32,000 bases of DNA from Candidatus Heimdallarchaeota archaeon. Its GTDB lineage: Archaea; Asgardarchaeota; Heimdallarchaeia; JABLTI01. The position numbers and the translations under genes were made by a program. Positions within the stretch are counted from its first letter, which is position 1; the number at the start of each line of letters is the position of its first letter. This document shows, piece by piece, positions 17,726 through 29,712 of this stretch. The DNA lies in NCBI GenBank assembly GCA_030614005.1, contig JAUWKS010000007.1:46610-78609 (forward strand), in the 5' to 3' direction. The notes under the pieces were generated by a model that had not been told where the DNA came from, searched no databases, and worked only from the letters and a program-made list of their open reading frames with translations.

Positions 17726-19009
17726 ATGGGTCATAAGAAAGGGCATGAGATGAATAGTTATCTCAAGCTTCAGCAAAGATTAGATAAAGCTCCTCAAGGA
17801 GCACCTCTTTCGAAATCATTATTCGAAATTCTCCAAGTACTATTTACTGATGAAGAAGCAGAACTTGTTTCAATACTTCCGATTAATTTTATCACAAAGG
17901 AAAAAGCAGCGAAAATATGGAAAAAAACTCCTGATGAAGCAGAGCAAATTCTCGATACATTAGCAAGTAAAGGCCTGATGCTTGATGGTTGTCAAGAGGA
18001 AATGCGAACGTATATTTTAGCTCCACCTATGGCTGGTTTCTTTGAATTTTCTCTAATGCGTACAGACGGGAAATTCGACCGTAAAATACTATCCGAATTA
18101 TATTATCAGTACATAACTAAAGAAGATGATTTTCTTTTCGCTATTTTTGACTCTCAAACTCCGATAGATAGGGTTTTCGTTCAAGAGGAGACAATAAAAG
18201 AAGAAGATTATTCTATTGTTTTGGATTATGAACGAGCAACTCAAGTAATAGAAACAGCGAGTTGTATAACCGTCGGCACTTGTTACTGTAGACACAAAAT
18301 GGAACATCTGGGAAAAGCTTGTGATCAACCCCAAGAGGTTTGTCTAACATTCAACGGTGCAGCAAAGAGTTTGTCAAATCATGGCATAGCAAAGGAAATC
18401 AGTAAAGAAGAAGCCCGGAAAATACTTGATCAATGTGTGGACGCAGGTTTAGTTCAAATCGGTGATAATGTTCGTGAGAGTGTTGCTTGGATTTGTAATT
18501 GCTGTGGTTGCTGTTGTGAAGCGATAGTTGCTTATAAGAGGCTGGGATTTAGTCCTGGAATCTATAGCAACTTTACTCCAGAAATAATCTCAGAAAATTG
18601 CTCCGGCTGTGGTATTTGTATCAAAAAATGTCCCGTTGACGCTATCACGTTAACTACAGATACAGCTAATCGAAAAATTGCTAAGATAAATTACGACCGC
18701 TGCTTTGGTTGTGGTGTTTGTGCTAAAAGTTGTAACAAAGATGCTATACAAATGAATCGTAGAAAGGATTTAATGCATACACCCAAAGATGCCTTTGATC
18801 GCGGTGTGCACATGGCAATAGATAAAGGAAAATTACAAAATCTTCTCTTCGATAATCAACATCTCTGGACTCATAAAATGCTTCAGAGGTTTATTGGTAT
18901 ATTACTTAATCTCGATCCAATCAAAGCTAAATTAGCAGATAGACAATTACAATCAAAGTTCATTCTTTTTGCAAGAAGAATGCAGAGATTTAGGAAAACA
19001 AAATTATGA
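17726..19009 (+). CDS. Cys-rich iron-sulfur protein (CNCCGCCC family) with a 2x[4Fe-4S] ferredoxin domain
   Basis: CYCRHK, C..P.EVCL, ICNCCGCCCE, CSGCGICIKKCP, CFGCGVCAKSC; GGTGA upstream of the ATG. Confidence 0.85.
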   Translation: MGHKKGHEMNSYLKLQQRLDKAPQGAPLSKSLFEILQVLFTDEEAELVSILPINFITKEKAAKIWKKTPDEAEQILDTLASKGLMLDGCQEEMRTYILAPPMAGFFEFSLMRTDGKFDRKILSELYYQYITKEDDFLFAIFDSQTPIDRVFVQEETIKEEDYSIVLDYERATQVIETASCITVGTCYCRHKMEHLGKACDQPQEVCLTFNGAAKSLSNHGIAKEISKEEARKILDQCVDAGLVQIGDNVRESVAWICNCCGCCCEAIVAYKRLGFSPGIYSNFTPEIISENCSGCGICIKKCPVDAITLTTDTANRKIAKINYDRCFGCGVCAKSCNKDAIQMNRRKDLMHTPKDAFDRGVHMAIDKGKLQNLLFDNQHLWTHKMLQRFIGILLNLDPIKAKLADRQLQSKFILFARRMQRFRKTKL

Positions 19010-19224: not shown

Positions 19225-19557
19225 TTGATTGACACTCAACCATTCACATTATGGATAGCATTAGGTCTAGTCCTTATCGCAGTCGTTCTATTGTACCTTT
19301 TGGGAAGACGAATCGCCCCTCGAAATCCCACACCAGCCAAACTAAAAAGCTACGCATGCGGAGAAGACATGGAGGGCGGACAAGTACAATTTTACCCAAA
19401 CACATTTATTTTCGCAATCTACTTTACAATATTTGACATCTTGGCTTTTATCCTTGCAACAGCAATGGTGACCCTAGATATGGGTATTGGATATACAGTT
19501 GTTCCAGCAATATTTGCCGGAATAGGTTTACTGGGAGTGTTAACTCTCAGAAGGTGA
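19225..19557 (+). CDS. nuoA: NuoA/FpoA-like membrane subunit of the hydrogenase complex
   Basis: Three hydrophobic segments; KLKSYACGED loop and YFTIFDI; TTG start after TAAGGCG. Confidence 0.85.
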   Translation: MIDTQPFTLWIALGLVLIAVVLLYLLGRRIAPRNPTPAKLKSYACGEDMEGGQVQFYPNTFIFAIYFTIFDILAFILATAMVTLDMGIGYTVVPAIFAGIGLLGVLTLRR

Positions 19558-19566
19558 TTTCAAGCT

Positions 19567-20073
19567 ATGGTACTACAAAAAATAATTACCTGGGCAAGAG
19601 TAAAGTCACCATGGATTATCCATGTTAATACCGGAGGATGCAATGGATGCGATATCGAAGTTGTCGACGTTCTTACGCCAAGATATGACGTCGAACGATT
19701 AGGAATCCTTATTCAAGGCTCCCCGAGACATGCGGATGTACTTATGGTGACCGGACCTGCAACACAGCAGATGAAAGATCGCTTAAAGCTTTTACATGAA
19801 CAGACACCAGATCCAAAATTTGTCATTGCTATCGGCGCTTGCGCCTGTAGTGGAGGCATTTTTAGACACTCATATATTCCTTGCTTAGGAATAGATACCG
19901 TTATTCCGGTAGATGTCTATATACCTGGTTGTCCTCCAAAGCCAGAAGCGATTATCTTTGGCGTCGCTCAATTGTTAGCAAAACTTCAGGGTAAAGACTC
20001 CCCAGTCATTACACCTAAGAAGATTGCCCTCAAAGATCTTAAAAAATCAATAGAGGAGGGTCTAGCAAAATGA
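19567..20073 (+). CDS. nuoB: Group 4 [NiFe]-hydrogenase small subunit (NuoB/EchC/MbhJ family)
   Basis: GCNGCDIE (CxxC, not the tandem CC of complex I NuoB), SPRHAD, GACACSGG, YIPGCPP. Confidence 0.92.
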   Translation: MVLQKIITWARVKSPWIIHVNTGGCNGCDIEVVDVLTPRYDVERLGILIQGSPRHADVLMVTGPATQQMKDRLKLLHEQTPDPKFVIAIGACACSGGIFRHSYIPCLGIDTVIPVDVYIPGCPPKPEAIIFGVAQLLAKLQGKDSPVITPKKIALKDLKKSIEEGLAK

Positions 20074-20588
20074 GCAAGACACTACAAGATGAACAGGATA
20101 TAGTTGACACTTTAAAGAGTCAATTTGGTGAGAAGATACTCGAAGCAAAGGTTCAACGTGAACGAAGAATTTTCGTTAAAGTTGCTAACCCAGATCATTT
20201 GGAGATTTTCTCGTTTGCTATGGAAAAATGGAAAGCATGGCATTTGATAGCAATATCTTCAGTCGATAAACCTGATGGTGTTATTGCCGCAGTATATCAT
20301 TTTGATATCCGTCCACCCTTTGGTGGTCAAGTAGCAATTTCCATGAATTTAATGATCGATTGCGACAGTCGAGAAAAACCAATACTAGCTTCTGTATATC
20401 ATCTTATAAATGGTGCAGAATATTTCGAGCGCGAAGCACACGATTTGATGGGAATATTTTTCGAAGGAAATCCCAACCTAATTCGACTTATCTTACCTGA
20501 TGACTTCCCTGAAGGTGTTTATCCACTGAGGAAAGACTTCCTTTTAGAGATTCAAAAGGAAGAACAGGCAAAGAAGGAGAAAAAATGA
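20070..20588 (+). CDS. nuoC: NuoC/MbhK/EchD-like subunit
   Basis: FEREAHDLMGIFFEGNPNLIRLILPDDFPEGVYPLRKD; ATGA overlap with the preceding gene. Confidence 0.9.
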   Translation: MSKTLQDEQDIVDTLKSQFGEKILEAKVQRERRIFVKVANPDHLEIFSFAMEKWKAWHLIAISSVDKPDGVIAAVYHFDIRPPFGGQVAISMNLMIDCDSREKPILASVYHLINGAEYFEREAHDLMGIFFEGNPNLIRLILPDDFPEGVYPLRKDFLLEIQKEEQAKKEKK

Positions 20589-20601
20589 GGTGATATGAAA
20601 T

Positions 20602-21873
20602 ATGGCTGATAAAAAGAAAATTAAATTAGGATCACCCCAAACCGGTTGCAGTTCATGCATACCAAATACTTTCGAAATACCTCTTGGGCCTCAGCATCCA
20701 GCTCTAAAAGAACCAACCCACTTTCTATTAGAAGTGGAAGGTGAAATAATTGTTAATGCAACTCCAAGAATTGGTTATGTTCATCGAGGAATTGAAAAAC
20801 TCGCCGAAACAAAAACTTATTCCGCTAACCTTACACTCGTCGAACGTGTGTGTGGTATATGTTCTCATATTCATTCCATTTCCTTAGCAAATGCTGCAGA
20901 AGCAGCTCTCGCTTTAGAAGGATTTGAGGTGCCATTAAGAGCACAATATATCAGAACTATTGTAGCTGAATTGGAACGTATCCATAGTCATATTCTTTGG
21001 TTAGGTGTAGCAGCTCATGAAATAGGGTTTGATACCTTATTTATGCTCTCGTGGAGAGATCGTGAGTTAACAATGGACCTTTTAGAAGACATCTCTGGAA
21101 ACAGAGTTAATTATGCTATGAACGAAATAGGCGGTTCAAGAAGAGATATGAACCAAAGTCAAATTGACCGTATGCTCAAATATATGGACATAACTGAAGA
21201 AAGGATGGAACGATACAAAGATATCTGTATAAATGAAAATACCATCCGAATGCGAACTCAAGATGTAGGAATACTCCTACCCCAAAAAGCTAAAGAATTG
21301 TGCGCTTGTGGACCTACTGCACGTGCCTCTGGAGTAGCTATTGACGTTCGATATGATGATCCTTATTCAGCTTATGGAGAGTTTCGTGACATATTCAATG
21401 TCATAACTTATGATACAAATGATGTATTCTCTCGAGTCGTCGTACGTATCATAGAGACAGTAGAAGCTTGCAAATACATCAAATGGATGTTGAAGAACAT
21501 ACCAGATGGGCCAATATTCAAAAAAGCCCCTAGGAAAGTTCCAGAAGCACAAATCTTGTCTCGAACAGAAGCTCCACGTGGTGAGTTGATTCACTACCTT
21601 TGGTCAAACAATACCAACAAACCTTACAGACTGAAAATAACAACACCAACACTATCAAACATCAATACCGTCCCTGAAATGATGAAAGGAGACTACTTAG
21701 CAGATTCGACAATTACATTAGCATCCATTGATCCATGTTTCAGCTGTGAAGACAGAATGATTACCATTGTGAACAATGACCGAAGAAAACCCAAGATAGA
21801 AACTTGGTCTGAAAGCCAACTCAGAAAATATAGTAATGATTGGCACGCAAAAAATAAAAGGTGGAAAAAGTGA
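20602..21873 (+). CDS. Group 4 [NiFe]-hydrogenase large subunit (NuoD-family fold; EchE/HycE/MbhL-like)
   Basis: L1 motif ERVCGICSHIH (C84, C87), L2 motif DPCFSCEDR (C379, C382), GPQHPALKEP, EAPRGE. Confidence 0.93.
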   Translation: MADKKKIKLGSPQTGCSSCIPNTFEIPLGPQHPALKEPTHFLLEVEGEIIVNATPRIGYVHRGIEKLAETKTYSANLTLVERVCGICSHIHSISLANAAEAALALEGFEVPLRAQYIRTIVAELERIHSHILWLGVAAHEIGFDTLFMLSWRDRELTMDLLEDISGNRVNYAMNEIGGSRRDMNQSQIDRMLKYMDITEERMERYKDICINENTIRMRTQDVGILLPQKAKELCACGPTARASGVAIDVRYDDPYSAYGEFRDIFNVITYDTNDVFSRVVVRIIETVEACKYIKWMLKNIPDGPIFKKAPRKVPEAQILSRTEAPRGELIHYLWSNNTNKPYRLKITTPTLSNINTVPEMMKGDYLADSTITLASIDPCFSCEDRMITIVNNDRRKPKIETWSESQLRKYSNDWHAKNKRWKK

Positions 21874-22961
21874 CCGCTGTTTGGTGGATTCTTACAATAT
21901 TGGGAATATTATTCTTCCCAGGTATAGGCTTCTGTATATCCATTGCATTATTTGATGAATGGATTGACAGGAAGTTTTATGCAGCTTTGCAAGATAGAAT
22001 AGGTCCAGAACACGCAGGATTCAAAGGTATTTTACAACCTTTGGCCGACTTCCTTAAGCTTTTAGCAAATGAAGATATTGAACCTGAAGCTGCCGATAAA
22101 TGGGGTATGCGATTTACAGCCATCATTGGCTTAGCAATACCACTAGTAGCATTATTGTTTATACCAATAATTGATACTACAGGGTTACTCTCATTTGAAG
22201 GTGATATTCTTCTGTTGGCATTCTTGACAACAATGATAGCTTTAATCATCTTCTTAGCAGGATGGTTCTCCGCGAGCAAATTGGCAATGCCAGGAACGAT
22301 GCGTGCTGCATCACAACTCTTGAGCTATGAAATTCCAATTCTATTAGCAATGTTCGCAGTAGCGTTACGGACACAATCTTTCTCACTTGCAGGAATTGTT
22401 CAGTGGCAACTTGATGCTCACCGACCAACATTATTCAGCTTACCGATGGTAGTCTTCTTCTTAGTATTCTTGCTTTCATCACAAGCAGAATTAGAACGAA
22501 GCCCATTTGATATTCCAACGGCTGAAACAGAAATAGTCGGTGGGTGGGAAGTTGAGTATTCTGGGAAAAAGTTAGGCTTTTTCCGATTATCTGCAGATTT
22601 ACAAATGGTTTTCTCCGCAGGTTTAGCAGTGACCCTCTTCTTAGGAGGTCCAACTGGTGTTGAAATGTGGATTCCTTCATTTGCTGATTGGTTAGCAAGT
22701 ATCGAAGGCGTTTCAGGTTTAGCAGTTGTTGCAATTCTCTATTACACTACAATGTTTGCTATAAAAACAACGATTATTGTTCTTATACTTTCAGCGTTTA
22801 GAGCTTTAATGGCGAGATTGCGTATAGAGCAATTCTTAGAATTTTCATGGAAATGGGTAATTCCAGTAACACTAGGTGTTTTTGCAATTACATTCTTCTA
22901 TGTCCCTTGGACAGACAATGTAGTCTGGTCTCACTGGGAAGGACTTTTTGATGTATCCTAA
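21870..22961 (+). CDS. nuoH: NuoH/MbhM/EchB-like membrane anchor subunit
   Basis: DRKFYAALQDRIGP, GILQPLADFLKLL, RAASQLLSYEIP, ERSPFDIPTAETEIVGG..VEYSG. GTG 21870 (GTGA overlap, AAGGTGG upstream) preferred over 21861. Confidence 0.92.
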   Translation: MTAVWWILTILGILFFPGIGFCISIALFDEWIDRKFYAALQDRIGPEHAGFKGILQPLADFLKLLANEDIEPEAADKWGMRFTAIIGLAIPLVALLFIPIIDTTGLLSFEGDILLLAFLTTMIALIIFLAGWFSASKLAMPGTMRAASQLLSYEIPILLAMFAVALRTQSFSLAGIVQWQLDAHRPTLFSLPMVVFFLVFLLSSQAELERSPFDIPTAETEIVGGWEVEYSGKKLGFFRLSADLQMVFSAGLAVTLFLGGPTGVEMWIPSFADWLASIEGVSGLAVVAILYYTTMFAIKTTIIVLILSAFRALMARLRIEQFLEFSWKWVIPVTLGVFAITFFYVPWTDNVVWSHWEGLFDVS

Positions 22962-22979
22962 TAAAGGAGATGAAGAATT

Positions 22980-23393
22980 ATGCCACGACCCGGAGTAATT
23001 GTTTGGGAAGCACTGAGAAATGTTTTCAGTAAAAAGGCAACCATAGATTATCCATTTGAAGAAGGCGTTAAACCAAAATATGGTTTGCGTGGAGCACATG
23101 TTCTCTATATTGAGGAATGTACAGGCTGCAGAGCTTGTCAGAGAGTTTGCCCATCATTAGCAATCGAAATGGTTCCATCCGAATTAACGAAAACCAAAAA
23201 ACGACCCGTTATCAATTTAGGTCAATGTATCTTTTGTGGCTTGTGTGAAGAAGCTTGTAGATATGATGCACTCTTCTTGACTGACTACATAGAACTTTCA
23301 GCCTTCCAACAAAAGGAGATGATTATCTATGAAAACGAACCCCCCAAAGAAGAAATTTCTGAAGGGAATGAACCGAAGGAGGAAGACTCCTAG
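22980..23393 (+). CDS. nuoI: NuoI/MbhN/EchF-like 2x[4Fe-4S] subunit
   Basis: ATIDYP, CTGCRACQRVCP, CIFCGLCEEAC; AAAGGAG upstream. Confidence 0.92.
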   Translation: MPRPGVIVWEALRNVFSKKATIDYPFEEGVKPKYGLRGAHVLYIEECTGCRACQRVCPSLAIEMVPSELTKTKKRPVINLGQCIFCGLCEEACRYDALFLTDYIELSAFQQKEMIIYENEPPKEEISEGNEPKEEDS

Positions 23394-23432
23394 TAAAATT
23401 ACTAGGACGAATTCATAGGAAGCGTGTAAGAT

Positions 23433-23732
23433 ATGGAACTCAACACAATTTTGTTGATAATACTATTAGCTATAGTGATCATTGCCGCTATTTTCGCAAT
23501 AGAGTTGCGTGATTTAATTTATGCATCTATTGCCTTAGCTGTACTAAGCATCGCTCTTGCTGGAGCATTCTGGATTCTGAACGCCCCCTGGGTAGCTCTC
23601 TTTCAGTTGATGGTTTACGGTGGCGCCGTTACAGTATTACTACTTTCTACTGTTGCACTCACCGAACGCTTTGAAACTGGTGAGCCAGCTGAGGATCTAG
23701 ATAAACTGCTCCCCGAAAGCAGCAAAACCTAG
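23433..23732 (+). CDS. nuoJ: NuoJ N-terminal half (FpoJ1/MbhD-like), 3 TM
   Basis: AGAFWILNAPWVALFQLMVYGGAVTVLLL matches the NuoJ TM3 region. Confidence 0.82.
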   Translation: MELNTILLIILLAIVIIAAIFAIELRDLIYASIALAVLSIALAGAFWILNAPWVALFQLMVYGGAVTVLLLSTVALTERFETGEPAEDLDKLLPESSKT

Positions 23733-23746
23733 GAGGAATACTACTG

Positions 23747-24169
23747 ATGAACAGAAAAACACGATCAATCATTCTATTCGCCTTTAGCATAGTCCTCGCG
23801 TTAGGTGTGTATGCATTCATTATGTACGGCTTAGTCGACTTTAATGATCCAAACAACGATACAAATGGTTTACGAGTGGATGAGTCTAATGACATTGCTG
23901 ATAGAGCAATTGGTTATGGTTTAGTTGATCTAAACTCTAGCGATTTTGCTTCCATTGGCAGAGCTGTTGGACACTTCATCTGGGAAACCAGAGCAATTGA
24001 TGTTATTCTTGTTGGAATAATATTATTCGTTGCTTCTGAATCCGCTGGCGCAGTAGTCCAAGGAATGGAAAAACAACGTAGCGAATTCCGCACTGAAATG
24101 TGTGACACAGACAAATACATCATCTTGGAAGAAATGAAAGAAGATGAGAAACAAGAGGAGACAGACTAA
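23747..24169 (+). CDS. NuoJ C-terminal half / MbhE-like membrane subunit
   Basis: N-terminal TM; GRAVGHFIWETRAIDVILVGIILFVA resembles the R.xD.....vLF.A motif of MbhE/FpoJ2; sits between J1 and K; AGGAGG upstream. Confidence 0.7.
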   Translation: MNRKTRSIILFAFSIVLALGVYAFIMYGLVDFNDPNNDTNGLRVDESNDIADRAIGYGLVDLNSSDFASIGRAVGHFIWETRAIDVILVGIILFVASESAGAVVQGMEKQRSEFRTEMCDTDKYIILEEMKEDEKQEETD

Positions 24170-24171
24170 GC

Positions 24172-24510
24172 ATGGCTTTATCGATACCTTTTGACAATAT
24201 CTACTTAATCTTAGGTTTCTCAGTAGCCTTATTGGTTATTGGTCTCTACGGATTAACCTCAAAACAGAATATGATCAAGTTCTTGATTGCTATCGAGTTA
24301 TTGCTTGATGCAGCTCATTTGAACTTTATTGCATTTTCAAACATCGTCGGAGGAAATGCAGGATTAGTTGATCCACTACCACATGTTGTCGTTATACTCA
24401 GCATTTGTGTGGGTGGATGTGTCGCTGGCGTTGCCTTAAGCTTGATAATTCAAGCCTACCGTGTGCATGCCACTTTGAATAGTCGAAGACTAAATCACTT
24501 GAAACATTAG
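24172..24510 (+). CDS. nuoK: NuoK/MrpC/MbhG-like subunit
   Basis: GLYGLTSKQNMIKFLIAIELLL; DPLPH motif before TM3. Confidence 0.88.
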   Translation: MALSIPFDNIYLILGFSVALLVIGLYGLTSKQNMIKFLIAIELLLDAAHLNFIAFSNIVGGNAGLVDPLPHVVVILSICVGGCVAGVALSLIIQAYRVHATLNSRRLNHLKH

Positions 24511-24513
24511 GAG

Positions 24514-26652
24514 ATGAAAGAACAGATGTTATTAGAATCTGCAGCAATAATGAATTGGGCTATCCCATTCGCAGGTGCACTAATTACTCCTATTATCGGC
24601 TTTATTGCAGGTAAACTAAAGGAAGGGTCTCAAACCCAAAAGGTGCTCCGAATAATCAGAAATTGGATGGCTGTATTTACATCATTCGTTGCATTCCTTT
24701 TCACAATGTTATTAGTGGTAGATGTTTTCAATGGCCAAGGTGGAGAAGCATTCGTAACCAATTGGTTCTGGAACATAGGCGACAAACCTTTTGCTGCAGG
24801 ATTCGGTGTCCTTGTAGACCCACTGACGGTCTTAATCGCTAGCTTTGCCTCAGGCATTGGTACTTTGATTATGATCTATGGTATTAACTACATGAAAGAT
24901 GACAAACATCTTGACCGCTACTGGTTCCTCATGCAGATGTTTATTGGTGGAATGATATTTTTAGTAATGTCAAACAATTTCCTTCAATCATTCGTCGGCT
25001 GGGAAATAGTTGGATTCTGTTCCTATGCATTGATTGGATACTTCTTCGATAAGAAAGGTCCACAAGATCCAAAAGAGTTTACCATTAAAGAGGAAACTGA
25101 AGGTGACTATAATGCTCACGCTGGATTTAAAGCATTCATAACCACTAGAATTGGTGACGTTATGTTGCTCACCGGAATACTCATTATTTTCGCCGTTGCT
25201 GGTACATTCAGATACACTGAACTATTATCAGATTTAACTTGGCTTAGCGACCTACACGACAAGAAGATTCTCGTCTTAACAGCAGTCCTCATCTTCGGTG
25301 GACCAATCGGTAAATCCGCACAATTTCCATTGCAATTCTGGCTTCCAGAAGCTATGGCTGGCCCCACAACTGTTTCAGCACTTATTCATGCTGCAGCAAT
25401 GGTCAAAGCTGGTATCTTTATGGTTGTTAGAACCTACCCAATGTTTTACCTCGGTTTACACGATCTACATATCGAAAATCTTCAATATTACTTCCTTATT
25501 GTGGCAGCAGTTGGTGGATTCACCGCTCTTATGTCTGCAACAATGGGTACGTCCGCGACTGAATTGAAGAAAGTTCTCGCTTTCAGTACTGTATCCCAAC
25601 TTGGTTACATGTTTATGGGATTAGGTGTTGGAGGACTAATTGAACCCGTAGGCGGAGTTATGGATTACAACGGCTATTTTGCCGGATCATTCCACATGTT
25701 ATCTCACGCCATCTTCAAAGCTTTACTGTTCCTTTCAGCTGGGGCAGTCATTCACGCCGTTCATACGAAATATATCGATGAAATGGGTGGTCTTCGTAAA
25801 GATATGCCAAAGGTCTTCTGGCCAATGCTTATCGGTGGTTTATCCTTATCTGGTGTTGTTCCACTAGGTGGATTCTTCAGTAAGGAATCAATCTTCGGTG
25901 CTTGCTGGCATCTTGGCGAAGAAGGAAACAATGCAGGATGGATATTCTTTGCCGTCGCTGCAGTCGCTGCTGCTTTAACATTCTTCTATACAATAAGATT
26001 CTTGGGCCATACGTTTGGCGGGAAGAAAACGGAGCATGTTGAAAAGGCAGAAAAAGAACAAGGTGGTCATTTACATAAGACCTCACCACTACTCTGGGTC
26101 CCATTAGTGATCCTAGCAGTTGGTACAATTGTTATCGGTTTCCTTGCACCTGTCGTTGAATTATTTATGAGCAAGAATGACTGGTTTGCAGCCGCAACTA
26201 ACTTTACCGTAGAAGCGTTCCATATAGATTATGCACACTTCTTTGGACACACTTTCGGATTTAGTCCACCAACCTTCTGGATAACTATTGGTATTCTATT
26301 AACCGGCTGTTTACCTGCCTATTTCTTATTCGTAAGAAAACAATGGGACACCAAAGAAATACTCAAGAAGAGCAAGATTGTAAACGGTATCTACACCTTC
26401 TTCCACAGGAGATGGTACATGAACCATGCAATTTATTGGTGCTTAAGAAAGTTCAAAGTATTCGCCGAATGGTTATACGAGAACTTCGATTTGAAAGTGA
26501 TAGACAGATCAAACTACATAATCGCATCAGGAACAATGAAGTCGGGAGAAGTGTTCAGAAAGACCCACACGGGTATTCTTTCAGTGAACTTTCTCTACAT
26601 GTTATTAGGAGCAATAATCCTAATCGCAGTATTATTATTCATTCCATTCTAG
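24514..26652 (+). CDS. nuoL: NuoL/MrpA-like antiporter-type subunit with long C-terminal extension
   Basis: GWEIVGFCSYALIG, AFITTRIGD, GKSAQFPLQFWLPEAMAGPTTVSALIHAAAMV, KKVLAFSTVSQLGYM, HAIFKALLFL, KTHTG before the last TM. Confidence 0.93.
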   Translation: MKEQMLLESAAIMNWAIPFAGALITPIIGFIAGKLKEGSQTQKVLRIIRNWMAVFTSFVAFLFTMLLVVDVFNGQGGEAFVTNWFWNIGDKPFAAGFGVLVDPLTVLIASFASGIGTLIMIYGINYMKDDKHLDRYWFLMQMFIGGMIFLVMSNNFLQSFVGWEIVGFCSYALIGYFFDKKGPQDPKEFTIKEETEGDYNAHAGFKAFITTRIGDVMLLTGILIIFAVAGTFRYTELLSDLTWLSDLHDKKILVLTAVLIFGGPIGKSAQFPLQFWLPEAMAGPTTVSALIHAAAMVKAGIFMVVRTYPMFYLGLHDLHIENLQYYFLIVAAVGGFTALMSATMGTSATELKKVLAFSTVSQLGYMFMGLGVGGLIEPVGGVMDYNGYFAGSFHMLSHAIFKALLFLSAGAVIHAVHTKYIDEMGGLRKDMPKVFWPMLIGGLSLSGVVPLGGFFSKESIFGACWHLGEEGNNAGWIFFAVAAVAAALTFFYTIRFLGHTFGGKKTEHVEKAEKEQGGHLHKTSPLLWVPLVILAVGTIVIGFLAPVVELFMSKNDWFAAATNFTVEAFHIDYAHFFGHTFGFSPPTFWITIGILLTGCLPAYFLFVRKQWDTKEILKKSKIVNGIYTFFHRRWYMNHAIYWCLRKFKVFAEWLYENFDLKVIDRSNYIIASGTMKSGEVFRKTHTGILSVNFLYMLLGAIILIAVLLFIPF

Positions 26653-26666
26653 GAGGATAAAAGTAA

Positions 26667-28190
26667 ATGTTTCAATACACACTAGTAATTGCAATCTTTA
26701 CACTACTCATTTCACCAATATTGGTATTCGTACTAGGAAAGTGGAATGAACACGTTGCAAAATGGACAGCATTCCTCGCAGTACTAACTTCTGCAATATT
26801 TGCTCTCTTAACAATCGGCGATGTATTATATCTCGGAGCATATACGGATACTTTAGGTGGCTTTACACTAGATCTGGGAGCAAAAGCTCTCTCAATTAAT
26901 TTCATTCTAGTAGCAGACTCACTAAGTCTTCCAATAGCAGGAGCAATCTATGTGCTCGCACTCGCTGTAATAATGTACAGCTTCGGTTACATGAAGGAAC
27001 AAAAGAACTTGGGACTCTATTATGCGCTCTTAGTTCTCTACGTTGCTGGAATGATCGGAGTAGTATTCGCAGGTGACTTAGCTTATTTCTACGTCTTCTG
27101 GGAACTGATGCTAATACCATCATACTTCATTATCGCGAACTGGGGTTCAAAACCAAACTCAGTGAAGATTGCATTCAAGTACTTCATCTTTACACATGTA
27201 GGTGCTATGGCAATACTCATCGGCATTGGTGGACTCTGGGCATTCTCAGATTTTGGAATAACAGGTGGTGCCTTAACAATGGCAGGATTTGCTCTAAGTA
27301 GCAGTGTTGCATCATCAACTATCAGATTGTTGACTTTGCTCTTTATAGTAGGATTTTCCGTCAAAATGGCGATATTCCCACTACACACGTGGCTTCCAGA
27401 TACTCACGGTGAAGCCCCCACACCAATCAGTGCTATCTTATCAGGTGTAATGATTCAAACGGCTGCTTACGCAGTTCTTCGTATCTGCACAGATATTATT
27501 GGCATAGACGGTATGGGCGGTTGGATGCGCTGGGTATTAATTGGCTTCGCAGTATTCACAATGATCTACGGGGGTGTCATGGCTATAGCTCAAAAGGATA
27601 CCAAACGACTCTTCGCTTACTCATCTATTTCACAGATGGGCTACATCTTCTTCGGACTTGCCACCTTTACAGCATACGGTGCAATAGGTTCTATGTTCCA
27701 CATCATCAGCCACTCGCTCGCGAAAGGATCCTTGTTTATGGTTGCAGGAATACTCATGACCCAAGTCGGTCACCATAAAGGACGAGAAATCAAAAAACTA
27801 GGCGGTCTTGGATTAAAGATGCCTATCACCGCAATTGTTGCTACGGTAGCAGCACTAAGCCTTGCAGGAACTCCACCACTGGCAGGATTTATGTCAGAAT
27901 GGATAATCTTCTCAGGAGGCTTAGCAGCAAACGATACTTTAGGAATTATAGCAGTAATATTCGCTATACTCTCAACAGCTCTAACAGCGACCTATGTTCT
28001 TCTCTTCTTGAAGGATGTATTTTTGGGACCAGTAAAAGAGGAATACAAGGATGTCAAAGACCCAAGTCCATATATGTGGATACCCTTGGTCACCATGGCA
28101 ATCCTAAGCTTCGTAATTGGAATATTCCCGAAAAGTGCACTAATTTTCATAACAAATTATGTTGCACCATTATTCACCGGAGGTTCATAA
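26667..28190 (+). CDS. nuoM: NuoM-like antiporter-type subunit
   Basis: [64 protein letters not shown]; AGGAGG upstream. Confidence 0.9.
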
Positions 28191-28194
28191 AACA

Positions 28195-29712
28195 ATGAAT
28201 GTATTCTGGATACTCCCAATAATCATACCACTTGCTGGTGCAGCATTAATTGGTATACTTGGAAAAATAGCTAAAAAAGAATCAGCTAGTTGGAATTTAG
28301 TCTATGCAGTAATTGCTAATATTTGTTTATTAGCAGTTCTTGGAATACTAATAACATTCTACACTTCACTAGGTTCTATTCTTAGCACCGAACTGAGTTG
28401 GAACATTGGACCTGATGTAGGTGCAACTTTCAAAATGGACCATTTAACTTGGTGGTTAGTACTAGTATTCGCCATCTTGGGTTCTGTAGTATCAATCTAT
28501 AGCATCAAATATATTGATCAAGACGACCGTATCGACCGATACTATCTTCTCTTACTCATCCTTGTTGCTGGAATGATTGGTGTAGTAATGTCAGGTGACA
28601 TGCTAACATTGTTTATCTTCTGGGAAACTATGAGCATAGCAAGCTATGTTCTTGTTGCTTTCAGAAAAGAACAACCAGAACCAATTGAAGCAGGTATCAA
28701 GTACCTCTTCATGTCCGCTTTCGGAAGTGTGATGATCCTCTTCGGAATGTCCTTAGCTTACGGAATCACAGGAACACTAAACATCGCCTCTGTTGGTACT
28801 ATCATTGCAACCAAATTCGCTAGTGGTCTCTCTGGAGTTCACTATATAATTATTGCAAGCCTTATCATCGGATTCGGTGTCAAAGCAGCCATCGTACCAT
28901 TACACACATGGCTTCCAGATGCGCACCCCGCAGCCCCAAGCGGAATTTCCGCAATGTTGTCTGGTGTTGTCATTATGACTGGCATGTATGGTATGATCTA
29001 CACTCTTACATCCTTCTTCCGACCTACAGGAACAAACATTGGTTTTATCCTTCTCTGGATTGCAGTAATTACTATGATAGTTGGAAACCTTCTCGCACTA
29101 CGACAAAACGACCTCAAACGTTTGCTTGCGTTCTCTACAGTTCTCAACGTTGGTTTCATACTCTTTGGTCTATCTATGGCCCTAACAGGTCTTGACCAAG
29201 ATGTTGCTCTCATAAGCGTTCAAGGTGGATGGTTCCATATCTTTACCCACGCCCTTGGCAAGGGATTAGCTTTTCTTGCCGCCGGAGCGATTATCTATCG
29301 CATCGAAGATCGTGGTTTAGATCGCATGGAAGGCATTGGTAGAAAGATGCCCTGGACAATAACGGCTCTCACAATAGCTCTTTTGAGCCTTGCTGGTGTG
29401 CCCCCACTCCCAGGCTTCTGGTCCAAGCTAAACATTGTGCTTGCAGCTGTTAGCTCAGGTAACTGGCAATATTATGTTGGAATAGTTTTATTCCTACTAT
29501 CTAGCGTCATCTCTGTAGTTTATTATTTGATTGTTCTTCAGAAACTTTGGTTCAGCGAACCACAAGAACATCTCAAGGACGTCAAAGAAACACCTATAGA
29601 AATTCTAATACCACTTTACGTATTAGTTATCGTGATGCTTATTGTTAGTATCATTCCAGGTAGATTTGAAATATTGGTTAAGCAAGCTGCAGAAGTTGCA
29701 ATGTTGCTATAA
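28195..29712 (+). CDS. Third antiporter-type subunit in the NuoN position, MrpD/MbhH-like in sequence
   Basis: [69 protein letters not shown]; ATG 28195 after GGAGGT. Confidence 0.88.

Follow-up and report, generated by a model that had tools for sequence, protein, structure and literature searches.

A predicted Hfo-type [NiFe]-hydrogenase on a complete complex I scaffold in a Heimdall-group archaeon

A membrane-bound hydrogenase is the presumed ancestor of respiratory complex I. Moparthi and Hagerhall (2011) described all of the 11-subunit complexes then known as being without the C-terminal cysteine pair, and postulated an 11-subunit ancestor with a Ni-Fe site (PMC3144371). Subsequently, Loh, Herve and Brune (2021, Front Microbiol; PMC7886697) reported Hfo, an Fpo-like 11-subunit [NiFe]-hydrogenase of Bathyarchaeia (Bathy-6), together with Hfo-like clusters in Pyrodictium delaneyi and Ca. 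Methanomethylicus. Hfo keeps both of the metal-binding motifs L1 and L2, has no Na+ module, and belongs to HydDB class 4g; a potential-driven reduction of ferredoxin by H2, or the reverse, was proposed as its reaction (PMC7886697). In Asgard archaea, complex I-like group 4 hydrogenases with a full lateral helix were described from Freyarchaeia and Atabeyarchaeia (Valentin-Alvarado et al. 2024; PMC11291895), and the complex I-like groups 4j, 4m, 4p and 4q from Heimdallarchaeia (Appler et al. 2024; bioRxiv 10.1101/2024.07.04.601786). Here we analyzed a twelve-gene operon at positions 19225-29712 (+) of a 32,000-nucleotide stretch of DNA (the window; positions 46610-78609 of contig C34) from the genome of a Heimdall-group archaeon, assembled as 3.62 Mb in 126 contigs and 90%-complete. 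We consider it likely that this operon encodes an Hfo-type energy-converting group 4 [NiFe]-hydrogenase of the HydDB 4g-like radiation, in which an 11-subunit complex I core, without an NADH, F420 or Na+ module, evolves H2 from ferredoxin and pumps protons.

The catalytic subunit D

We compared the protein encoded at the nuoD position, subunit D, with hydrogenase large subunits and with NuoD; judged by its sequence, D is a hydrogenase large subunit, not NuoD. The L1 motif of D reads R-V-C84-G-I-C87-S-H-I-H and the L2 motif reads D-P-C379-F-S-C382-E-D-R385, with all four of the Ni-Fe cysteines kept. The beta1-beta2 loop, GPQHPALKEP, carries the hydrogenase-type Glu, as in GPIHPGLEEP of MbhL, whereas NuoD has GPxHPSxHG there; K36-E37 of D stand at the His-Gly position of NuoD, and C87 stands at its Tyr position. 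Furthermore, D ends in a C-terminal tail of 38 aa (386-423), which aligns, position by position, with the HycE and HyfG extensions. The extension of HycE is cut off by HycI behind the Arg of the L2 motif.

Searches against solved structures gave the same picture, since D matched MbhL (6cfw_L, 270 bits) and HycE (7z0s_E, 262 bits) better than Nqo4 (206 bits) and the other complex I 49-kDa subunits (~100-190 bits), and the alignments to MbhL and HycE span both cysteine motifs. The NCBIfam NuoD model scored 322 bits on D, slightly below its cut-off of 360. An insertion specific to E. coli NuoD is missing from D; we did not use it as evidence, the canonical Heimdall NuoD being as short as the hydrogenase core. 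Both CxxC pairs, the Glu of PALKEP and a tail of 26-45 residues were present in all 20 of the Asgard orthologues of D examined (40-95% identity), and the Bathyarchaeia homologues likewise keep the Ni-Fe cysteines and the tail.

In a maximum-likelihood tree of 57 rows (a 108-row version was also made), the cysteine-less NuoD clade, formed by E. coli and three canonical Heimdall nuo operons, was split from all of the cysteine-bearing rows with support of 100/99. D of the window was placed in a fully supported five-row family clade within a broad archaeal and bacterial hydrogenase radiation. This radiation of 46 rows is poorly resolved (86/66) and lies within a 48-row clade (99/93), which includes Bathyarchaeia (among them L212), other Asgard classes, Thaumarchaeota, and bacteria with relatives called 4g in the literature. 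Neither a NuoD-type quinone site in the alignment nor membership of the NuoD clade in the 57-row tree was found for D.

We also observed an N-terminal extension of about 24 residues on D (20602-20673), with the invariant motif TGCxxC(M/I/V)P containing C16 and C19. This extension occurs in every full-length family member seen (P0001-P0024, L048, L049, L086 and L087), and is absent from the Jordarchaeia and Freyarchaeia D orthologues compared. No clear partner cysteine pair for C16 and C19 was found in the other subunits of the operon.

Gene content, electron path and membrane arm

The twelve co-oriented open reading frames (ORFs) of the operon follow the order nuoA-B-C-D-H-I-J1-J2-K-L-M-N, with successive spacings of 9, -4, 13, -13, 18, 39, 14, 2, 3, 14 and -32 nt (maximum gap 39 nt), and the whole predicted complex comprises 3463 residues over 12 chains. 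Gene families were assigned by Pfam and NCBIfam, and the two J halves by a profile of unsplit NuoJ-like proteins, as listed below (TM, transmembrane helix).

19225..19557, + strand: A, NuoA-like membrane subunit; 110 aa, TTG start, 3 predicted TMs; Oxidored_q4 (PF00507, E 1.2e-9)
19567..20073, + strand: B, NuoB-like/hydrogenase small subunit with the predicted proximal [4Fe-4S] cluster; 168 aa; Oxidored_q6/NuoB (PF01058, E 3e-33; TIGR01957, 149 bits, above cut-off)
20070..20588, + strand: C, NuoC-like subunit; 172 aa; Complex1_30kDa (PF00329, E 1.3e-23; top NCBIfam models FpoC and NuoC, both below cut-off)
20602..21873, + strand: D, [NiFe]-hydrogenase large (catalytic) subunit at the NuoD position; 423 aa; Complex1_49kDa (PF00346) and NiFeSe_Hases (PF00374)
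21861..22961, + strand: H, NuoH-like membrane subunit; 366 aa, GTG start, 13-nt overlap with D; NADHdh (PF00146, E 4e-77)
22980..23393, + strand: I, NuoI-like ferredoxin subunit with 2x[4Fe-4S]; 137 aa; Fer4 families and NuoI (TIGR01971, E 1.4e-26)
23433..23732, + strand: J1, N-terminal half of NuoJ; 99 aa, TM1-3; NuoJ N-half (PF00499, E 1.6e-12) and MbhD (PF13244)
23747..24169, + strand: J2, C-terminal half of NuoJ; 140 aa, two TM helices and a long loop, conserved in the family of the window; no family
24172..24510, + strand: K, NuoK-like subunit; 112 aa; NuoK (PF00420, E 7e-20)
24514..26652, + strand: L, NuoL orthologue; 712 aa; NuoL (TIGR01974, 457 bits, above cut-off)
26667..28190, + strand: M, NuoM orthologue; 507 aa; NuoM (TIGR01972, 307 bits, above cut-off)
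28159..29712, + strand: N, NuoN orthologue; 517 aa; antiporter-like (PF00361, E 1e-64)

J1 corresponds to positions 2-80 of the 167-position profile of unsplit NuoJ (E 5e-26). J2 gave zero Pfam or NCBIfam matches; it is colinear with positions 87-110 and 125-155 of the same profile (E 1.4e-5), and because of this match at positions 87-155 we assign it as the C-terminal half of NuoJ. The longest ORF of N overlaps M by 32 nt, and an in-frame ATG at 28195 (Met13) would turn the overlap into a 4-nt gap. The annotated start of N is probably too early, since the ATG at 28195 brings its length nearer to that of the orthologue from another genus, L049 (508 aa). The twelve-gene order is repeated in four more assemblies of the same family (L048, L049, L086 and L087), which argues that the operon is not an assembly artefact.

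No gene of the NuoEFG, FpoF/O, MbhABCF or MrpE/F/G type was found by Pfam and NCBIfam among the twelve operon genes or in the flanks, and none of the formate dehydrogenase or HycB/HyfA type was found inside the operon. The operon is flanked by an Fe-S protein gene upstream and by a convergent LPG-synthase-like gene downstream. The upstream gene (window 17726-19009, +), 215 nt before nuoA, encodes a protein of 427 aa with a 2x[4Fe-4S] domain at residues 285-345 and additional Cys-rich motifs, and has paralogues on the host contigs C24 and C106.

We then examined the subunits that would carry electrons to D. In subunit B, the ligands C25, C28, C92 and C122 are invariant across all of the homologues compared, and the first pair forms CxxC (CNGC) like that of HycG, whereas E. 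coli NuoB has CC. In subunit I, the cysteines 47, 50, 53, 57, 83, 86, 89 and 93 are invariant across all homologues and would bind two [4Fe-4S] clusters. To judge by these ligands, the electron wire through I and B is intact, and subunit I is probably the docking and entry point for ferredoxin.

The membrane arm, in turn, resembles that of complex I. Against solved structures, L matched NdhF1 with 263 bits over residues 15-710 and NuoL with 235 bits, compared with 116 for MbhH and 58 for HycC; H similarly matched NdhA (153 bits) and Nqo8 (124) better than MbhM (78) and HycD (53). In a tree of antiporter-like subunits with 71 rows, including E. coli Nuo, Hyc and Hyf and canonical Heimdall subunits, L, M and N of the window each fell into their own clade with E. 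coli NuoL, NuoM and NuoN, respectively, and the canonical Heimdall subunits (support 100/99, 100/99 and 100/98). E. coli HycC, HyfB, HyfD and HyfF were placed outside these clades, and so were the three antiporter-like subunits found in a large clade of bacterial hydrogenases. By this tree, L is the one-to-one orthologue of NuoL, M that of NuoM and N that of NuoN. A recent module swap, in which a hydrogenase head was placed on a captured complex I arm, is not supported, because the hydrogenase-linked L and M group apart from the canonical NuoL and NuoM (94/90 and 93/88; N unresolved), as D does.

L also has the C-terminal lateral-helix region (~608-692), an ~85-residue non-TM stretch between the last two predicted TMs, of which the final one spans 693-711. 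We read the coupling residues from the alignment to E. coli complex I. L, M and N all retain a Glu in TM5, a Lys in TM7 and either Lys or Glu in TM12: L keeps E164, K267, H394, H398, K402 and K457, including the connecting His and Lys residues, while M keeps E146, K233, H349 and E411, and N keeps E156, K242 and K423. In H, the acidic residues are mostly kept (D36, D63, E157, D217, E222, E224 and E232), together with R37; D71 of A is aligned to D79 of E. coli NuoA, and E42 of K to E36 of E. coli NuoK.

Most of the preliminary description of this DNA, which had been made from the letters and their ORFs, was borne out by these analyses. The RVCGIC, DPCFSC and GPQHPALKEP motifs that it had read in D and the CNGC that it had read in place of CC in B are all present, and the ORF listing agrees with the order A-B-C-D-H-I-J1-J2-K-L-M-N and with gaps of at most 39 nt. 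Its labels J1 and J2 are upheld by the unsplit-NuoJ profile, which matches both halves, and the family assignments agree with its account of a full NiFe site, a NuoA and three pumps with no MbhABC/MrpEFG module. It had also considered that the large subunit might nest within the Nuo or Fpo clades; this did not occur, given the split of D from NuoD in the tree above.

Proposed function and competing explanations

We propose the following mechanism for the enzyme. D would be made as a precursor, into which the Hyp machinery would insert the metal centre, and a HycI-type protease would then cut the 38-residue tail after R385. Reduced ferredoxin, supplied by the 2-oxoacid:ferredoxin oxidoreductases (OFORs) of the host, would dock on I, and the electrons would pass through the two [4Fe-4S] clusters of I and the single cluster of B to the Ni-Fe centre of D (C84, C87, C379 and C382), where protons would be converted to H2. 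The redox event at the D/B/H interface would be relayed by the acidic residues of H and by A, J and K to N, M and L, which, clamped by the lateral helix of L, would move protons outward. The reaction would be reversible; in the cell, a sediment anaerobe living by fermentation or syntrophy, it would presumably run towards H2 evolution with ion pumping.

The metabolism of the host was analyzed from its genome. Seven OFOR (POR/OFOR) alpha-type genes were found, while the 90%-complete genome yielded neither CdhC of the Wood-Ljungdahl pathway nor a heme-copper oxidase; DNA of the window turns up in marine-sediment and cold-seep metagenomes from four studies. The seven OFORs, the lack of CdhC and of a heme-copper oxidase, and the sediment and seep habitat together fit a fermenting or syntrophic anaerobe that sheds reduced ferredoxin as H2.

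Several points weigh against H2 evolution with proton pumping by this complex. The step from reduced ferredoxin to H2 frees far less energy than that from NADH to quinone, and by our estimate it is implausible that four channels pump 4 H+ for every 2 e- when the enzyme runs forward. In addition, the alignment shows altered coupling positions: Q264 stands at K265 of NuoM (E in relatives), M273 at K247 of NuoN, and V84 at E72 of NuoK, where the E. coli residues are numbered as in the mutagenesis literature. With these alterations in M, N and K, the pumping stoichiometry may be lower, or some of the channels may be inactive. Ferredoxin is taken as the probable donor because every other input module is lacking, and not on the strength of an observed interaction. 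Moreover, no Hfo-type or 4g enzyme has been purified, assayed or characterised (PMC7886697). As for expression, a search of public RNA runs for the operon and the D gene listed none, which is not evidence either way.

The last of these points concerns maturation. The preliminary description had proposed a search of the genome for hyp genes. This search recovered HypA, HypB, HypC and HypE, along with four HycI-family proteases, two of them away from any other hydrogenase, while the 90%-complete host assembly yielded neither HypD nor HypF. Among the sister genomes, HypD is present in 8 of 11 and HypF in 9 of 11, ~20-25 kb apart on one contig. The syntenic host contig, C63 (end at 59943), stops 19 kb short of hypD, and a region of ~50 kb in one sister genome (G234:C6:50457-100451) with hypD (69134) and hypF (94185) has no syntenic counterpart in the host assembly. 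True loss of HypD and HypF was therefore rejected, as both lie on one contig in the sister genomes and C63 ends before hypD; the gap is best read as an assembly break, because C63 ends where the sister contigs continue into hypD and hypF. A Hyp system would be needed anyway, since the host genome has four or five further [NiFe] large subunits, including those on C27, C4 and C5.

Because of the small energy span between ferredoxin and H2 and the three altered coupling residues, the reverse direction keeps an appreciable, if minor, chance. In this case, the same enzyme would run backwards, and the membrane potential would drive the uphill reduction of ferredoxin by H2, as with Eha, Ehb and Ech in methanogens. 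Loh et al. argued for this direction in the Hfo of acetogenic Bathyarchaeia (PMC7886697). By our estimate, a many-channel arm would suit an inward H+ flow that drives an endergonic step with a large push per electron pair, and the host has other, cytoplasmic hydrogenases able to dispose of reductant (C27, C4 and C5). However, no CdhC/ACS was found in the 90%-complete genome, so that there is no evident Wood-Ljungdahl sink for extra reduced ferredoxin, which makes the ferredoxin-reducing role proposed for Hfo less compelling in this host; reduced ferredoxin is already supplied by the seven OFOR-type genes, and the Heimdall complexes are predicted by Appler et al. to evolve H2 (bioRxiv 10.1101/2024.07.04.601786).

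It is quite unlikely that electrons come from a dedicated partner instead of free ferredoxin, either from the upstream 427-aa Fe-S protein or from a NuoEF-like module elsewhere in the genome. The gene of the Fe-S protein is co-oriented with the operon, its product has the 2x[4Fe-4S] domain and extra Cys motifs described above, and various partners have been suggested for 11-subunit complexes (PMC3144371). However, beyond the host, only L048, the closest genome of the same genus, has this gene beside the operon; it is absent there in L049, L086 and L087, and we rejected it as a core electron-input subunit for this reason; no input-module gene lies within the operon either.

Finally, a true respiratory 11-subunit complex I/Fpo-like enzyme that reduces quinone or another membrane carrier, with the Ni-Fe cysteines as relics, is highly improbable: the gene order, the complex I type of L, M, N and H, the NuoD score of D just under the cut-off, and the canonical nuo operons in the same class would all agree with it, but a relic would not keep the four cysteines, the Glu and the cleavable tail in orthologues down to 40% identity, the canonical Heimdall NuoD has DRLCY and GPQHPVNHG, ends at ...DR and has no tail, D stands outside the NuoD clade, and the host genome, as far as assembled, yielded no heme-copper oxidase.

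We also searched the host genome for a second complex I by tblastn and found none, only a cysteine-less pair of D-like and H-like genes on C29 and an Mrp-like arm on C87. The C29 locus (~20990-23270; L174:6990-9271, - strand) encodes a NuoD-like protein of 381 aa, with no Ni-Fe cysteines and 29% identity to D, beside a NuoH-like protein. The NuoD-like protein forms a very long branch in the D tree, and the pair may be an Ehr-type 'hydrogenase-related' module.

Relatives and known systems

The distribution of D orthologues was surveyed. Those with 77-95% identity occur only in the family of the window. The next relatives, with 53-58% identity, belong to other Asgard classes, including the published Freyarchaeia/Jordarchaeia enzyme, and to Bathyarchaeia, followed by bacteria of many phyla with 47-54%. 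In other families of the same class, D is 41-51% identical and the operons read A-B-C-D-H-I-J-K-L-N, with two antiporter-like subunits. The gene order varies among relatives, some having ABCDHI alone, others a divergent or upstream J-K-L-(M)-N block; Bathyarchaeia L212 has A-B-C-D-H-I-J-K-L-M-N with the Ni-Fe motifs.

In bacteria, the common gene order is M-L'-N-J-K-A-B-C-D-H-I, that of a very widespread clade (L090-L165, GTDB genomes) in which the Ni-Fe motifs are kept and D is 47-54% identical to that of the window; among the phyla represented are Acidobacteriota, Planctomycetota, Omnitrophota, Elusimicrobiota, Bacillota, Aminicenantes and Spirochaetota. A K-L-N-B-C-D-H-I form is carried by two cultured Anaerolineae, Longilinea arvoryzae and Leptolinea tardivitalis. 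Within the class of the host, other families carry canonical, cysteine-less nuoA-B-C-D-H-I-(J)-K-L-M-N operons (L171:4057-14984 in G255, L172:4150-10133 in G102, and L173:12947-14929 in G054). Owing to these operons in sister families, the quinone-type and the Ni-Fe-type of the same operon coexist in one archaeal class.

Enzymes with a Ni-Fe site on a full complex I scaffold are the closest living models of the transition from hydrogenase to complex I, and the operon of the window offers a full L-M-N arm, predicted to be coupled to proton reduction, in an anaerobic sediment archaeon of the class nearest to eukaryotes. It also sharpens the question of how many ions a three-antiporter arm can move on the small drop from ferredoxin to H2, or whether the enzyme runs backwards. 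A wider claim would be that, for the lineage closest to eukaryotes, no hydrogenase seen so far is more complex I-like than that of this Heimdall family, which would represent a living version of the postulated 11-subunit Ni-Fe ancestor, with L, M and N each orthologous to their complex I counterparts and a cysteine-less quinone-type version in sister families, and that the TGCxxC extension could be an extra metal or redox site undescribed in group 4 hydrogenases; taken jointly, we regard this as doubtful. If the D and L/M/N trees were congruent, a switch from Ni-Fe to quinone on a finished complex I scaffold would be implied, and a single archaeal class would still hold both members of a 'before and after' pair.

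The preliminary description had taken the combination of features in this operon as the mark of an intermediate between hydrogenases and complex I. Each of the elements held, but E. coli Hyf and the widespread bacterial 4g-type clade likewise combine three pumps with a complete Ni-Fe site. Its expectation that the class would probably not be wholly new proved right, since the exact combination was published as Hfo in 2021, and complex I-like hydrogenases of Asgard archaea in 2024. The operon thus gives a Heimdall family a clean and complete enzyme of the Hfo type. It adds incrementally to a class already published, and its value lies in this complete example and the comparative evidence, not in a new class. 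What may be unstated for Heimdallarchaeia in both of the Asgard papers is the full colinear L-M-N arm, each subunit orthologous to that of complex I, with a quinone-type twin in sister families.

Among the known systems, Mbh of P. furiosus (group 4d, 6CFW) and the formate hydrogenlyase (FHL) of E. coli with HycE (group 4a, 7Z0S) provide the closest solved catalytic subunits, with the same Ni-Fe ligands as D. However, Mbh lacks a NuoA and pairs a single antiporter-like subunit with an Mrp-type Na+ module, whereas the operon of the window has three antiporter-like subunits and no such module. FHL has only HycC and HycD in the membrane and a formate dehydrogenase partner, and the operon lacks both of these traits; MbhH, MbhM, HycC and HycD score far below the complex I subunits against L and H. 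Hyf does have three antiporter-like subunits, but they lie outside the NuoL, NuoM and NuoN clades that hold L, M and N of the window.

Complex I with 11 subunits, Fpo-like complexes and the cyanobacterial NDH-1 share with the operon an identical subunit set and order, orthologous L, M and N, the lack of an NADH module, and ferredoxin as the likely donor. In contrast to D, these enzymes have no Ni-Fe cysteines, and they reduce quinone or methanophenazine.

The complex I-like hydrogenases of Asgard archaea resemble the enzyme of the window: their NuoBCDI arm has no NuoEFG, their Ni-Fe D is apparently active, ferredoxin is the predicted donor, and L has the full lateral helix. The Freyarchaeia/Jordarchaeia D is 57% identical to D and is among its nearest neighbours outside the family; compared with these published enzymes, the family of the window has L, M and N together in one colinear operon.

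Finally, Hfo has the same eleven subunit types as the operon, the same Fpo/Nuo gene order, L1 and L2 in D, and no FpoF/O, NuoEFG or MbhABCF. In the window, the eleven subunit types, the gene order (compared with E. coli nuo minus EFG, L171 and L212), L1 and L2, and the lack of an input or Na+ module were all found. D of Bathyarchaeia L212 is 53% identical to D and belongs to the same radiation, and its L, M and N fall into the same NuoL, NuoM and NuoN clades. The enzyme of the window differs from Hfo in its host, an Asgard family of the Heimdall group, in its NuoJ, which is split in two, and in its D, which carries the family-specific N-terminal CxxC extension.

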